Part shown: positions 10,421 to 57,006 of the stretch, piece by piece
How positions within the stretch are numbered: position 1 is the first letter of the stretch
How the letters are laid out: each line of letters starts with the position of its first letter
Assembly (NCBI GenBank): GCA_011389995.1
Contig: JAABTG010000009.1
Coordinates: 13,482 to 77,481, forward strand
Origin: Thiotrichales bacterium
Lineage (GTDB): Bacteria > Pseudomonadota > Gammaproteobacteria > JAABTG01
DNA length: 64,000 bases
Direction of reading: 5' to 3'
Notes under the pieces: generated by a model
What the model saw: the letters and a program-made list of their open reading frames with translations, nothing else
Told to the model about the DNA's origin: nothing
The model's database searches: none
Translations under genes and position numbers: made by a program

Positions 10421-10909
10421 TTAGCGATACCGTGCGTCCTCCGCACGGTCTGCAGCGATCTGGGCCTCCCATTTGTCGCCCACCGCCAGCAGTTTCTCCT
10501 TTGTCATGTAGAGGTCCCCGCGCTTCTCGCCGTGATACTCGTGGATGCGGGTCTCGACGATGGAGTCCACAGGACAGGACTCCTCGCAGAAACCGCAGAA
10601 GATGCACTTGACCAGGTCGATGTCGTAGCGCGTGGTACGCCGGCTGCCATCCTCCCGCACCTCGGAATCGATGGTGATGGCCAGGGCCGGGCACACCGCC
10701 TCGCACAGCTTGCAAGCGATGCACCGCTCCTCGCCGTTGGGGTAACGGCGCAGGGCGTGAAGGCCGCGAAAGCGCGGCGACATGGGGGTCTTCTCTTCCG
10801 GGTACTGCACCGTCACCTTGCGCTTGAACAGGTAGCGTCCGGTGAGGCGCATGCCCACCAGCAGTTCCCACAGCATGAAGCTCTTGAAGAAGTGGCGGAA
10901 TCCGTTCAT
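10421..10909 (-). CDS. nuoI: NADH-quinone oxidoreductase subunit I (2x[4Fe-4S] ferredoxin-type)
   Basis: 162 aa starting [11 protein letters not shown]. Two CxxCxxCxxxCP motifs are present ([24 protein letters not shown]). The track ORF is N-terminally over-extended to 11239. Confidence 0.9.
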
Positions 10910-12060
10910 GGCATGATCACCCCGCTCGGTTTCACCGCCCCCCGGAAAACCACCAGCAGCAGGGTCAACGCCACGGCCAGCAGGCCGAAGCCCGTGAGCC
11001 AGTCCCACAGGGGCGGATACATCACCGCCACGCCCACCACCACCAGCCACACCAGGGTGACGGGTATGAAGACCTTCCAGCCCAGACGCATGATCTGGTC
11101 GTAGCGGTAACGGGGAAAGGTGGCCCGGAACCACAGATAGAGAAACACGAACAGGGCGATCTTCAGCAGCAGCCAATGTATGCCGTTGCCCAGCAGGGGC
11201 AGGGAGGCCAGGGCGGTCCCCTCGAAGGGCGACAGCCACCCCCCCAGGAAGAGGATGGCCGCCAGCGCCGCAATGAGGATCATGTTGGCGTACTCCGCCA
11301 GGAAGAAGACGGCGAAGGCCATGCCCGAGTAGTCCACGTGGAAGCCGGCGACGATCTCCGATTCCCCTTCCGCCACGTCGAAGGGCGCGCGGTTGGTCTC
11401 CGCCACCCCGGAGATGAAATAGACCAGAAACATGGGCAGCAGCGGGGCCCAGAACCAGCCGAGGACACCGCCTTCCTGGGCCAGCACGATGTCACGGATA
11501 TTGAGACTGCCGGCGGCCATCAGCACCACCACCAGGGCGAAACCCATGGCGATCTCGTAGGACACGATCTGGGCGGCGGAGCGCATGGCGCCGAGGAAGG
11601 CGTACTTGGAGTTGGAGGCCCACCCCGCCACGATGACGCCGTAGACCCCGATGGAGGTCATGGCCAGGATGTAGAGCAGGCCGGCGTTGATGTCGGCGAT
11701 GACGAACTCGGCGTTCAGGGGCAGCACCGCCCAGGCCGCCAGGGCCGGGCCGAGGGACAGCATGGGGGCGATGAGGAACAGCACCCGGTTGGCCCCGCTG
11801 GGCAGCACGATCTCCTTGAACAGGAGCTTGACGGCGTCGGCGATGGGCTGGCCGAGACCCCACAGGCTGTGGCCGAAGAAGCCCACCCGGTTCGGTCCGA
11901 TGCGGACCTGGATGCGACCGATGATCTTGCGTTCCGCCAGGGTGACGTAGGCCACCGCCAGCATCAGGGGCCCCACCACCATCATGATCTTGGTGCTGGC
12001 GGCGAGCACGGCGCGCAGGCCCTCGGGCAATGCCATCCACATGTCGGTAAAGAATTCCAT
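10906..12060 (-). CDS. nuoH: NADH-quinone oxidoreductase subunit H
   Basis: NuoH/ND1 membrane subunit. The track ORF starts at a TTG (12066); an ATG at 12058-12060 ([15 protein letters not shown]) is the likelier start. Confidence 0.85.
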
Positions 12061-21433: not shown

Positions 21434-21585
21434 ATAGCCGTCCTGGCTTACCCGGCACAGGCCAAGGGAAGCTCCGGTGCCTGCCCTGGCTTCCCTCCCC
21501 AACACCGTCGCGCCAAGCCGCTTAACGTGAAAGACGCCCCGCCGTTCGATGTCGCCGGGGGCGGCCGACCTTCAGGCCAAGGCTT

Positions 21586-22938: not shown

Positions 22939-23082
22939 GTGTCGATTCTCTCCTTGGCAACCACCATCTCAGTTCCGCCCCGTGTTCCAAACGTTTAGCG
23001 GACGCCCGGCGGGAGATCTTTATGCCAGAAAGGATCGGGGTTGTCACAGGCGACGGCCCCATTTGCGAAGGCTGCACCAAAA

Positions 23083-23113
23083 AAAAGGCCCCCGGCATGC
23101 GGGGGCCTTTCAG
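23083..23113 (-). terminator. Rho-independent terminator of ftsH (bidirectional hairpin)
   Basis: Plus-strand read aaaaaaaaggcccccggcatgcgggggccttt: a GC stem (ggcccccg / cgggggcc) with an A8 run on one side and a T-run on the other. On the minus strand the stem is followed by U8. It lies 3' of ftsH, beyond the 122-bp repeat. Confidence 0.7.
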
Positions 23114-23132
23114 GGTACGCGGACCTGCTTCG

Positions 23133-23250
23133 CCTAACGGACATGGCGCGAGGCCACCCCGAAGGATGAAAGGTGCGCCATGTCCCCCCTCACCCCGGCC
23201 CTCTCCCAGGGGGAGAGGGAGTCCAAAGGTGTCGCTGCGCGACTTTCACG

Positions 23251-23254
<4 letters not shown>
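23133..23254 (+). repeat. 122-bp multi-hairpin intergenic repeat, copy 1, in the ftsH 3'UTR
   Basis: cctaacggacatggcgcgaggccacc...ggtgcgccatgtcc...ccctctcccagggggagaggg...gtcgctgcgcgac...tttcacgttaa. About 95% identical to 42629-42752. Three internal hairpins. The terminal TTAA supplies the ftsH TAA stop codon. Confidence 0.85.
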
Positions 23255-25176
<1,922 letters not shown>

Positions 25177-25225
25177 GTCATTCAACGTGTTAGACCTCTA
25201 CAGCGGCCAAGAATAATTGTCCAAA

Positions 25226-42573: not shown

Positions 42574-42628
42574 GAAGCGCAAAGTGGAGCCTGCAACCAT
42601 CCCGCCCGCCGTCGGCGGGCCCATCCCG

Positions 42629-42752
42629 CCTAACGGACATGGCGCGAGGCCACCCCGAAAGGATGAAAGGTGCGCCATGTCCGTCCCTCACCCCGGCCCT
42701 CTCCCAGGGGGAGAGGGAGTCCAAGGGTGTCGCTGCGCGACTTTCACGTTAA
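42629..42752 (+). repeat. 122-bp multi-hairpin intergenic repeat, copy 2, in the fur 3'UTR
   Basis: About 95% identical to 23133-23254 and in the same orientation. The terminal TTAA supplies the fur TAA stop codon. Confidence 0.85.
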
Positions 42753-43174
42753 CCCTCGTAATGGGGGCACTTGGCGCGGGTACAGTCGCCGTAGATGATG
42801 AGGGAATGGTCGGTGATGTCGAAGCCCGCCTTCTTGGCCACCGTGTGTTGATGCTTCTCGATGGTCTGATCCACGAATTCCTCGATGTAACCGCACTGAT
42901 TACACACGATATGGTCGTGATGCTTGCCTTCATAGAGTTCGAAGACCGCCTGGCCACCCTCGAAGTTATGCCTTTCCACCAGCCCGGCCGTCTCGAACTG
43001 GGTCAACACCCGGTAGACGGTCGCCAGGCCCACCTCTTCGCCGGCATCGAGTAGCGCCCGGTAGACGTCCTCGGCGCTGACGTGGCGCTTTTCCGACTGT
43101 TCGAGGATATTGAGGATGCGGATACGCGGGAGAGTGGCCTTGAGCCCGGCCTTTTTCAGATCATGACGGTCCAT
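42749..43174 (-). CDS. fur: Ferric uptake regulator Fur
   Basis: Start MDRHDLKKAGLKATLPRIRIL. Contains HHDHIVCNQCG and is collinear with E. coli Fur. The track ORF is extended to 43228. Confidence 0.9.
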   Translation of the reverse strand: MDRHDLKKAGLKATLPRIRILNILEQSEKRHVSAEDVYRALLDAGEEVGLATVYRVLTQFETAGLVERHNFEGGQAVFELYEGKHHDHIVCNQCGYIEEFVDQTIEKHQHTVAKKAGFDITDHSLIIYGDCTRAKCPHYEG

Positions 43175-47090: not shown

Positions 47091-47642
47091 ATGGCTCCTA
47101 CGGCCCCCCTCCAGACGCCACGGGCCACCCCCCTGGGGCGCCGCAACGGCTTCACCCTCATCGAGATGATGGTGGTGCTCATCATCGTGGGCGTCATCGC
47201 CAGCCTCGCCATGGTGCGCCTGACCACCGACGATGATGCCGCCCAGGCCCGGCGCGAGGCCGAACGCCTCAGCGCCCTCCTTCACCTCGCCCGCGACGAG
47301 GCCATCGTGCGGGCCCGCTCCATGGGCCTGCGCCTGGCCCCCGACGGCTACCGCTTCGCCCTGTATGACGGCGGTCGCTGGCGCGACCTCGACGACGACG
47401 GGGTGTTTCGCGCCCGCCGGCTGCCCGATCACCTGCGCCTCGCCGTCCATGGCGTGAACCGGGGGACCGCCGATGGCGACCCCCGGGATGGCCGGGAACC
47501 GCCGCCCCAGGTGATCCTCACCCCCGGTGGCGAGGCCACCCCCTTCGAACTCTCCATCGCCGGGCTGGACGGCGGCGGCGCCCAGCGCATCCACGGCGGG
47601 GCCATGGGCCGCTTCACCATCGAGACGGGCGATGAGAGCTGA
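47091..47642 (+). CDS. gspH: Type II secretion minor pseudopilin GspH
   Basis: Prepilin motif GFTLIEMMVVLIIVGVIA. Start MAPTAPLQT within track ORF 46908..47642. Confidence 0.75.
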   Translation: MAPTAPLQTPRATPLGRRNGFTLIEMMVVLIIVGVIASLAMVRLTTDDDAAQARREAERLSALLHLARDEAIVRARSMGLRLAPDGYRFALYDGGRWRDLDDDGVFRARRLPDHLRLAVHGVNRGTADGDPRDGREPPPQVILTPGGEATPFELSIAGLDGGGAQRIHGGAMGRFTIETGDES

Positions 47643-48024
47643 CCACCGCAGAACAGGAGGCTTCACCCTGCTGGAGATCCTGGTGGCCCTCACCATCGTG
47701 GCCCTGGCCCTCGGCGCCGCCATCAGCGGCACGGGCGGCCACGTGGAGAGCACAGACCACCTGCGCAACAAGACCATCGCCCACTGGGTGGCCCTCAACC
47801 GCGTCACCGAACTCCAGGTGGCCGAGCCCTGGCCCGCCCTCGGCGCGAGTTCCGGCTCGGAGGAGATGACCCACCGTGAGTGGCGCTGGACCGCGGACGT
47901 GAAGCAGACCCCGGACGCCGGCGTACGACGCCTGGAGGTGGCGGTGACGCCGGCGGCCTCCCCCGACGCCGTGCTGGCCCGGGTCACCGCCTTCACCACC
48001 GCCCCTGCCGGGGCCACGCCATGA
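47632..48024 (+). CDS. gspI: Type II secretion minor pseudopilin GspI
   Basis: MRADHRRTGGFTLLEILVALTIVALALGAAI. Overlaps the gspH stop. Confidence 0.75.
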   Translation: MRADHRRTGGFTLLEILVALTIVALALGAAISGTGGHVESTDHLRNKTIAHWVALNRVTELQVAEPWPALGASSGSEEMTHREWRWTADVKQTPDAGVRRLEVAVTPAASPDAVLARVTAFTTAPAGATP

Positions 48025-56353: not shown

Positions 56354-56385
56354 TTCGAGCCGAAGATGGGCCAGTATTGTTCAAT

Positions 56386-56449
56386 GCCGAGATGGGCCAT
56401 CCATGGCCCACTTCGGCGCGGCAGGGGAAAACGCGGTTTTCCCCTGCCT
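56386..56449 (+). repeat. 64-bp direct repeat, copy A, with a perfect 12-bp-stem hairpin (GCAGGGGAAAAC-GCG-GTTTTCCCCTGC)
   Basis: gccgagatgggccatccatggcccacttcggcgcggcaggggaaaacgcggttttcccctgcct. Repeated 160 bp downstream with 1 mismatch. Confidence 0.85.
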
Positions 56450-56545
56450 ACATGGGTCGCGCCGGGCGCGCCCCATGGCGAGGCTCCTGCCTCGCGGGGA
56501 CTTCCGGCTTCGCAGCTCTATGCCGGGATGGGGCGGATCGTTCAA

Positions 56546-56630
56546 GCCGGGATGGGCCATCCATGGCCCACTTCGGCGCGGCAGGGGAAAACGCGGTTTT
56601 CCCCTGCCTCGCGGGGGCTTCCGGCCAAAG
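56546..56630 (+). repeat. 64-bp direct repeat, copy B, plus the shared tail ctcgcgggg(a/g)cttccgg
   Basis: Identical to copy A apart from g/a at position 5. Copy A carries an extra 38-bp GC-palindromic insert before the shared tail. Confidence 0.85.
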
Positions 56631-56704
56631 CTCATGCGGCTAGGGCGCGTAGCCGAGCGGGGGTCGGGAGTCGGGGGTGGACCAGCACTAAGGGCATCAC
56701 AATT

Positions 56705-56751
56705 AAAAATTCAAAATTCAAAATTCAAAATTGAAACCGCATAGCGGTTTC
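56705..56751. repeat. Heptanucleotide tandem array (AAAATTC)x~4 followed by an 8-bp-stem hairpin (gaaaccgc-ata-gcggtttc)
   Basis: Direct read: aaaaattcaaaattcaaaattcaaaattgaaaccgcatagcggtttc. AT-rich island ~260 bp upstream of fdhD. Confidence 0.8.
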
Positions 56752-57006
56752 CTGCCGTGGTGAGGACCAAGGATGTGGAAAATTGTGCCAAGAGTGCTCA
56801 CATTCCTAGCCATATTGTCCTATCCATGAGGAATGCAGGGACAAAATGCGGCAATCTCCGGTGGTTTTGCCGACGACGACGGGGCTTTGCGCCCCGTAAC
56901 CGCGGTCCCCGGGGCGCTGCCGGCCCGATGGGAATGGTTCTTGCTTGGACTTTGGGAGGCCGCCGCGGCAGGCGGCCATCGGCTTACCCAGGAGTACCCC
57001 AGCCCC

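Follow-up and report, generated by a model that had tools for sequence, protein, structure and literature searches.

Ends of ftsH and fur share a folded repeat

Two genes of a Thiotrichales bacterium, ftsH and fur, end in the same strongly folded repeat, and the terminus of that repeat supplies their stop codons. What kind of element is this, and how did it come to lie there? We analyzed a 64,000-nt stretch of contig JAABTG010000009.1 (the window), in which copy 1 occupies positions 23134-23254 (121 nt; forward-strand coordinates, read on the minus strand; TTAACGTGAAAG ... CCATGTCCGTTAG), between the ftsH stop codon and the ftsH terminator. Copy 2 occupies 42630-42752 (123 nt, likewise read on the minus strand), directly 3' of the fur stop codon. 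The copies have the same orientation and are identical at 119 of 123 aligned positions (97%), the differences being two 1-nt indels and two substitutions. An earlier note on this DNA had found both copies but put their identity at ~95% and their starts one base too early, at 23133 and 42629. Diagnostic 25-27-mers occur exactly twice in the window, against 0 expected from shuffled sequence. The block common to both copies runs from CTAACGG through CACGTTAA, with a sharp drop in similarity at each end. The CGC to its left (23131-23133 and 42627-42629) is also common to both copies, which each contain CGCCTAACGG, and probably belongs to the flank rather than to the element.

The product of ftsH (23251..25185, minus strand) is 100% identical to a database protein (P0001) with FtsH_ext, AAA and Peptidase_M41 domains, and fur (42749..43174, minus strand) has a Pfam FUR match; the other window genes with Pfam matches are PGM_PMM (glmM), Thioredoxin, TIM, SecG, FtsJ and YjgF. 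The TAA stops of ftsH (complement of 23251-23253) and fur (complement of 42749-42751) coincide with the first three bases of the terminal TTAA of the respective copy, as had been noticed before.

Three hairpins are found in each copy, in line with the earlier description. In copy 1, the long hairpin pairs GGACATGGCGC (23139-23149) with GCGCCATGTCC (23175-23185) across a loop of 25 nt, the central hairpin CCCTCTCCC-AGG-GGGAGAGGG spans 23199-23219, and a third hairpin near the left end (LE) spans 23231-23243 and reads GTCGC-TGC-GCGAC on the plus and GTCGC-GCA-GCGAC on the minus strand. None of 200 shuffles folds as well as the element on either strand (z-scores of -2.9 to -5.1). The intrinsic terminator of ftsH, a 12-bp stem followed by T8 on the minus strand (23083-23111), lies outside the element. 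Because this terminator sits beyond copy 1, the copy is transcribed as part of the ftsH 3'UTR; the position proposed for it, between stop codon and terminator, is correct. No consensus terminator was found downstream of fur and copy 2.

Conserved ends define a wider family

To place the unit among its relatives, we compared the two window copies with one copy in Thioalkalivibrio sulfidiphilus ALJ17 and with one (L021) and three (L028) units in metagenomes. A scan of the genome collection with the exact long hairpin gave one true match, the ALJ17 member (L009 3525-3651), which is 81% identical and is flanked by the atpC terminator and glmU; the seven other matches, from Actinobacteria and others, were rejected as chance palindromes. 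A metagenome scan with a 21-mer from the LE returned two true members, L021 and L028, and eight matches that were discarded as coding sequences (for example ..VSLRDFH..). The L021 member lies precisely in the gap that separates the stop of a gene for T2SS-E from the start of one for T2SS-F (Pfam assignments); it carries a variant of the BoxC motif (next section) followed by a different hairpin and terminates in ..CATGGCTGTTAG. L028 holds three head-to-tail units of ~160 nt, each starting TTAC|CGTGAARGT. Units 1 and 2 end in ..CCATGGCCGTTAC, the right end of unit 3 is degenerate (..GCCCGCTAC), and the units are joined as ..CCGTTAC|CGTGAAAG... The interiors of the L028 units consist of unrelated hairpins, with BoxC absent. 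On a Methylococcus plasmid, the LE hairpin is found beside a BoxC-like motif. Blastn of LE plus right end (RE) against plasmids yielded chance matches only, and four scans of viral contigs gave nothing or one coding chance match.

What the members have in common is their ends; the interior differs from one to another. The LE of copy 1 (23228-23254, minus strand; TTA|ACGTGAAAGTCGCGCAGCGACACC), which includes the hairpin GTCGC-GCA-GCGAC, is identical at 27/27 positions in L021 and one base off in L009 and L028 unit 2. The conserved left end of the family is TTA|ACGTGAAAGTCGCGCAGCGAC, or TTA(A/C)CGTGAARGT(CGCGCAGCGACACC) in the alignment of members. The RE block of copy 1 (23134-23176, minus strand; CACCTTTCATCCTTCGGGGTGGCCTCGCGCCATGTCCGTTAG) comprises the loop and the 3' arm of the long hairpin. 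Its aligned form, ~45 nt, reads GGACyTTTCATsyTTC(C)GGGGTGGC..GCGCCATGkCCGTTA and is kept in L021 and L028. When an RE profile was built from L028 alone, its best non-self matches were the two window copies, at the expected place and on the expected strand, with E = 0.06 and 0.4 in 0.58 Mb; these matches are significant because the search is effectively limited to ~150 nt beside a left end that was located independently. Units of this composite build, with their conserved ends, appear to form a small and hitherto undescribed family, ordinary in kind.

A further trace of the LE lies near glmM. The 12-mer TTAACGTGAAAG has three matches in the window against 0.07 expected, and the solo copy is located at 21522-21533 on the plus strand, that is, in the opposite orientation, in the spacer that separates a thioredoxin gene from the convergent glmM, whose stop is 53 nt away. 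The recurrence of this 12-mer had been noted correctly, its position (given as 21529-21546) had not. Both the RE block and BoxC are absent from this locus; an RE-like stretch beside the 12-mer falls within the glmM coding sequence, is missed by the RE profile and was rejected. The solo 12-mer probably represents what is left of a unit, or else a member that has diverged.

The middle third of the unit is a BoxC/TMECO motif

The CCCTCTCC hairpin and C-rich tracts that the earlier note had singled out are BoxC, a G/C-rich motif later named PIT and then TMECO (PMC4666352). The module covers 23186-23219 in copy 1 and 42684-42717 in copy 2 (34 nt each, minus strand); in copy 1 it reads CCCTCTCCC CCT GGGAGAGGG CCG GGGTGAGGG G, with the type B loop CCG. 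Both window copies and L009 match exactly the TMECO consensus 5'-CCCTCNCCC N3-6 GGGNGAGGG N3 GGGNGAGGG[GTC-]-3' (Holder et al. 2015, PMC4666352), and the L021 variant has a 25-nt hairpin within loop 2. Holder et al. (2015, PMC4666352) counted 3610 occurrences of TMECO across 262 genomes of Proteobacteria, and their supplementary table lists nine of its motifs for Thioalkalivibrio HL-EbGr7. E. coli oligonucleotides, the only ones analyzed, form an intrastrand purine-motif triplex in single-stranded DNA according to CD and NMR data, and the motif marks unstable intergenic loci in E. coli (PMC4666352). Holder et al. found it not to be associated with mobile elements (PMC4666352). By its match to the consensus, the combination of central hairpin and C-tracts is the published BoxC triplex motif.

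Like BoxC elsewhere, the motif is intergenic (both window copies), repeated and common to Proteobacteria. The unit as a whole is not an E. coli BoxC repeat. When the full-length element was compared by blastn with 5426 complete E. coli genomes, only bases 34-85 aligned; such module matches occur in 4518 of the 5426 genomes, at a median of six places each, and the module is also found in many plasmids. LE and RE are absent at the E. coli BoxC loci. We therefore reject the equation of the 121-nt element with the E. coli BoxC repeat, as only a ~50-nt module is in common. In contrast to the E. coli repeat, the motif here takes up only the central third of a larger unit, which has conserved ends of its own, and the related L028 units carry other cargo and no BoxC.

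Filled and empty sites point to a discrete insertion

One site is found in both states among T. sulfidiphilus strains. In ALJ17 it is filled and reads ..GCGTCCC|TTAACGTG...CCGTTC|GGTCGGG.. (in a longer reading ..GGGCGTCCC|TTAACGTGTAAG...CATGTCCGTTC|GGTCGGGCTTCAGCCCGAC..). In at least seven other assemblies (L040-L046, L048, L049), whose AtpC is the same or 99% identical, it is empty and reads ..GCGTCCC GTA GGTCGGG.. (also ..GCGTCCC or GCGTCAT GTA GGTCGGGC..). The difference in length is exactly 124 nt, and this pair sets the same boundaries as had been deduced from copies 1 and 2. When empty, the site forms the GTAG head of a REP of the GTAG type, a separate family present nearby; the ALJ17 copy is inserted at GTA|G of this head. 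The ALJ17 junctions, TTA .. TTC as opposed to GTA at the empty site, do not match exactly in this one filled/empty pair. An insertion without duplication requires one substitution (G to T before TA), and a 3-bp duplication at least two; intergenic divergence among these strains is ~10%, and because the spacers differ to this extent the substitution counts do not decide between the two.

Breaks in short-read contigs also point to a repeat. Logan contigs with an identical fur end inside the element after 30 nt (L002), 27 nt (L003) or 58 nt (L006, L008). Logan assembly uses k=31. A stop at 30 nt is explained by k=31 assembly of a multi-copy repeat that starts at the T of TTAACG, and a stop at 58 nt corresponds to the polymorphic position 27 plus 31. 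These contigs therefore come from populations with at least two or three copies, which makes 2-3 a lower bound for the copy number in the source genome.

Relatives lack the element at both window loci. It is absent after fur in L001, L004, L005 and L007, which are fur-identical and whose genes end GGC TGA, and after ftsH in L032, which ends CAC TAG, and in L033 and L034, which end CAC TGA. The spacers of these relatives are unalignable and hence demonstrate absence rather than exact boundaries. The proposed link with folP, whose usual place between ftsH and glmM the repeat was thought to occupy, is not supported. The gene is absent from the whole window; the order ftsH-folP-glmM is found in L030, L031 and L032, and in L033-L037 ftsH is followed directly by glmM with the element also absent. 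Loss of folP is a lineage trait unrelated to the repeat.

Sharp boundaries, absence in relatives, the filled/empty pair and the contig breaks uphold the earlier comparison with REP, BIME and MITE sequences and support the conclusion that the unit behaves as a discrete insertion. They also bear on the idea that nothing was transposed, and that the repeat is a DNA-structure element of the host, a BoxC-type triplex or BIME-like mosaic arising and spreading by replication slippage, recombination or gene conversion and serving as a site of protein binding or instability. Its core is indeed TMECO, which forms a triplex in vitro, marks unstable E. coli loci and was found by Holder et al. to have no link to mobile elements (PMC4666352), and its make-up is that of a modular mosaic. 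Yet what comes and goes is the whole unit of 121-127 nt rather than the motif alone, its boundaries agree among four unrelated loci and in the filled/empty pair, the conserved ends persist without BoxC cargo in L028, and the flanking trinucleotide is constant. We consider this explanation very improbable.

Insertion at T-TA|G would rebuild the stop codon

The sites that preceded insertion can be reconstructed. Removal of the stretch ACGTG...CCGTTA restores ..CAT TAG GCGAAGC.. at the end of ftsH, where the GCGAAGC flank is common to L032, and ..GGT TAG GCGGGAT.. at the end of fur; the reconstructed ancestral L021 site is gspE ..GAC TAA GCCG ATG gspF. From these reconstructions it follows that the element entered T-TA|G(G) directly behind its TA. 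The target had been proposed to be TTAA; TTA stands at both ends, and the empty T. sulfidiphilus site has a single GTA. On the reconstructed sequences, T-TA|G(G) is the more fitting description of the target, rather than a TTAA that was duplicated. Read in this way, the present TAA stop is composed of the old TA and the first A of the element, and the old TAG is found at the far end (..CCGT TAG G); for ftsH, the displaced TAG is the complement of 23134-23136. The fur stop is built as that of ftsH.

In the window, with its G+C content of 66%, TTAA occurs 21 times, and CGTTAA three times, all of them left ends of the element. The window offers few targets at which insertion does no harm, stop codons being among them. 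At this base composition, insertion into T-TA|G(G) would mostly hit TAG stops and the heads of GTAG REPs. Since the element's first base is A, a TAG stop would be rebuilt as TAA in place; the gene product would remain unchanged and the copy would therefore be tolerated. GTAG REPs have been described as providing neighboring ORFs with TAG stops (PMC3733652), and the present unit resembles them in that the terminus of the repeat supplies the stop codon.

Effects on the transcript are probably incidental

Could the unit have been selected in place as a functional RNA that stabilizes the 3'UTR or blocks exonucleases, stands in for a terminator at fur or gives rise to a 3'UTR-derived sRNA? Both window copies and that of ALJ17 are in the sense orientation immediately downstream of a gene, the three stem-loops are stable (z -3 to -5), and fur is followed by no consensus terminator. 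REPs are known to stabilize upstream mRNA. Against such a role, a search of the whole window at the Rfam gathering threshold assigned no family to the element; with E<=10 at the locus, the best sub-threshold hits lay on the ftsH terminator and not on the element. Orientation relative to local transcription is evenly split over six loci, with three sense (window copies, ALJ17) and three antisense (L021, L028 and the Methylococcus locus L029). The member alignment reveals conserved stem sequences and variable loops, and no compensatory changes; other members carry unrelated interior hairpins. The ftsH gene has a strong terminator of its own, the ALJ17 copy lies beyond the atpC terminator and is missing from the other strains examined, and relatives do without the element at both ftsH and fur. 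We judge selection for an RNA function to be improbable.

The suggestion of a 3'UTR-derived sRNA or mRNA-stabilizing module thus loses its footing: the missing Rfam match, the 3:3 orientation, the lack of compensatory changes and the strains without the element all speak against it, and a dedicated RNA role is not supported by the sequences. A local effect is a different matter and may exist, because all three Thioalkalivibrio-type copies are sense and lie just after a gene. Their stem-loops could incidentally slow 3' exonucleases or, in the case of fur, help to define the 3' end.

The element is non-coding. Owing to the indels, its plus-strand frames are out of register between the two copies, and when its open frame was translated and searched against proteins, no candidate emerged, in agreement with the anticipated lack of codon-level conservation. 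Other known types of structured sequence were also considered and rejected. Sites of the attC type have the core sites RYYYAAC ... GTTRRRY, paired L''/L' arms and adjoining cassette genes; here, one end fits (GTTAGGC), the other is GTTAATG or GTTAACC, the arms are unpaired and the flanking genes are core genes. A hammerhead or other ribozyme, a retron and a terminator were dismissed on sequence grounds together with the Rfam result.

The ends suggest single-strand mobilization

How might such a unit move? The best terminal inverted repeat is TTAACG/CGTTAG, 5/6 bases with the target included, and the ends are in fact direct, TTA..TTA. Hairpins lie 8-9 nt from the end at LE and 4-8 nt at RE and are only loosely alike (GTCGC/GCGAC versus GGCGC/GCGCC). 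The absence of terminal inverted repeats combined with hairpins near both ends suggests single-strand mobilization of the HUH type. For IS608, insertion takes place 3' of TTAC and neither adds nor removes nucleotides, imperfect palindromes lie near the ends, and an RE-LE junction is formed (PMC3201880). The unit is like IS608 and the IS200/IS605-derived PATEs in lacking terminal inverted repeats, in having hairpins near both ends, in the short target 5' of the left end (TTA here, TTAC in IS608) and in a similar RE terminus. The empty site has one xTA, and the arrays share an RE-TTAC-LE junction. The unit differs from IS608 in that the hairpin-to-end distances are 19 and 10 nt in the latter, and in that the LE and RE hairpins here are not near-identical. 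By analogy, the element would work like a PATE.

The main rival is a MITE moved by cut-and-paste through a DDE transposase, with IS-derived ends (LE and RE) and a 3-bp TTA/TAA target duplication. Such duplications are made by elements of the IS5 group (IS1031) and of the PIF/Harbinger type, and the TTA at both ends of every copy, the single GTA at the empty T. sulfidiphilus site, the size of the unit, its non-coding nature and its presence/absence polymorphism would all fit. However, once TTA is set aside there is no terminal inverted repeat (ACGTGAAAGTC.. versus CGGACATGGCG..), the L028 ends are direct (TTAC..TTAC) and not inverted, at least two substitutions are needed to reconcile the ALJ17 junctions with a GTA duplication, and plasmid and viral-contig searches did not turn up a parent IS. 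We regard this route as unlikely. The same plasmid and viral-contig searches revealed no TnpA (Y1) transposase, autonomous partner or full-length parent of the unit.

Other small repeats share some of these features. The resemblance to REPs, BIMEs and REPINs lies in the short G+C-rich hairpins, the short conserved 'head', the mosaic structure and the location near gene 3' ends. In contrast to those RAYT-associated sequences of 20-40 nt, the present units have no GTAG or CGTC tag and measure 121-170 nt. Unlike those of a REPIN, the end hairpins are unrelated and form no doublet, and in the L028 array the units follow one another head-to-tail, with no alternation. REPs occur at more than 100 copies per genome, and for the present unit 2-3 copies is a lower bound. 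With bacterial MITEs (Correia/NEMIS, ERIC, RUP, Nezha) the unit has in common a size of 100-170 bp, non-coding sequence, an intergenic location with co-transcription, strong folding and polymorphism; those elements, however, possess terminal inverted repeats of 15-30 bp and clear target duplications.

The reading that we favor, and hold to be probable, is a non-coding, non-autonomous mobile repeat that inserts into T-TA|G sites, the HUH-type mode of mobilization being our inference. On the minus strand, its anatomy would comprise the target TTA, the left end ACGTGAAAG, a 5-bp hairpin, variable cargo (here BoxC/TMECO) and an RE block of ~45 nt that ends in ..GCGCCATGTCCGTTA and folds into the long hairpin. 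An enzyme acting in trans, most likely an HUH/Y1 transposase working by 'peel-and-paste' as for IS200/IS605-derived PATEs, would move it; this route is preferred because real terminal inverted repeats are missing, hairpins mark the ends, the RE ends in the TTA of the target and the arrays are head-to-tail. After insertion, the copy would be co-transcribed passively as 3'UTR. Any effect of the extra 3' stem-loops on ftsH and fur mRNA, or of the triplex on DNA stability, would be a by-product.

GC skew suggests that the minus strand, on which both window copies are read, is the leading-strand sequence, an observation with n=2 and confounded with gene direction; such placement is compatible with the strand bias of IS200/IS605 elements, and the ALJ17 locus is uninformative in this respect. 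A compensatory pairing between LE and RE block (GTGAAAG/CTTTCAT) was considered and rejected, as the ALJ17 changes are out of register.

Implications for annotation and for the spread of BoxC

Units of this family can mislead genome analysis. They may be mistaken for ORFs, as illustrated by the 124-aa ORF 23022..23396 in the window and by L009 3163..3603 in ALJ17, whose translation contains 'PHPNPLPLGEG..CRCATYTL', and they break short-read assemblies. A mobile repeat that regenerates the stop codon it hits would explain why copies accumulate exactly at the 3' termini of essential genes, ftsH and fur among them.

To our knowledge, the present case is the first hint that a BoxC/TMECO motif is carried by a discrete unit whose ends resemble those of a transposon and which is polymorphic between filled and empty sites. 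We know of no mechanism by which BoxC/TMECO motifs spread. It is conceivable, if doubtful, that in some lineages BoxC/TMECO is the cargo of unnamed hairpin-ended, TA|G-targeting elements moved by an HUH-type transposase, and triplex-forming cargo might favor the single-stranded state needed for transposition. If BoxC and mobility are not linked, the present units are one more small intergenic repeat family; if they are, the origin of these widespread motifs would become testable, and should the motif indeed travel as cargo of HUH-mobilized elements, the spread of BoxC would become a question for experiment.

Small repeats in the atpC-glmU spacer and variants of the core

The stretch between atpC and glmU is a small-repeat hot spot. 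In the Thioalkalivibrio sulfidiphilus assemblies that lack the element there, the empty site is a GTAG-type REP, GTAGGTCGGGCTTCAGCCCGAC (L040 10550-10580; likewise L041-L046, L048 and L049), which belongs to a family distinct from the element. The spacer of a relative, L047 (AtpC 93%), is enlarged to 630 nt (10430-11060) and carries two copies of another GTAG REP, GTAGGATGGGCAAAGCGCwGCGTGCCCATC, together with a GGTGAGGGGTGAGGGGG tract.

A variant of BoxC, the intrastrand-triplex motif that forms the core of the element, lies at 1564-1625 of metagenome contig L021. In it a 25-nt hairpin, GCCATCGGC GGAT GCCGATGGC, takes the place of the second loop, which is otherwise 3 nt long. All three 9-10-nt blocks are retained alongside this loop-2 hairpin, a hint that the arrangement of three blocks is itself what is being preserved. 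Another metagenome contig, L028, contains a mosaic array of three head-to-tail units (10573-11045), flanked by an AlbA_2-domain gene on one side and a DUF3782/PD-(D/E)XK gene on the other. All three have the junction CCATGGCCGTTAC|CGTGAAAGT in common. A GTCAGGGCTGGAAGCCCTGAC hairpin is present in units 1 and 3, which show 87% identity to each other; the hairpin of unit 2 is 28 bp long.

Other features of the window

The window also holds a repeat family other than the BoxC-carrying element, at 56360-56640. Two copies of a 64-nt unit (56386-56449 and 56546-56609; 98% identity) are accompanied by an incomplete third head at 56360-56385. The unit reads GCCGrGATGGGCCATCCATGGCCCACTTCGGC followed by GGCAGGGGAAAACGCGGTTTTCCCCTGCC and comprises two hairpins, the second of which is terminator-like. 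A long non-coding stretch occupies 56640-56940, and an A+T-rich island with about four tandem copies of the heptamer AAAATTC, reported just upstream, is located at 56690-56740 inside surroundings of 66-71% G+C.

The coding motif GFTLIEMMVVLIIVG.. occurs twice, at 47148-47212 and 47659-47723. This motif marks the N-terminus of type II secretion pseudopilins or type IV pilins, and its repetition points to several consecutive pseudopilin genes within the window's 71% G+C part.

No folP was found between ftsH and glmM (22939-23250), and tblastn gave no folP match in the whole 64-kb window. The gene order of relatives is of two types, ftsH-folP-glmM (L030-L032) and ftsH-glmM (L033-L037).

Gene calls across the element

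On the minus strand of the T. sulfidiphilus ALJ17 locus (L009 3163-3603), a 146-aa ORF, the translation of which includes ..PHPNPLPLGEGDDIRCRCATYTLRD.., passes through the element. This ORF exemplifies the spurious gene calls that repeats of this type can produce.
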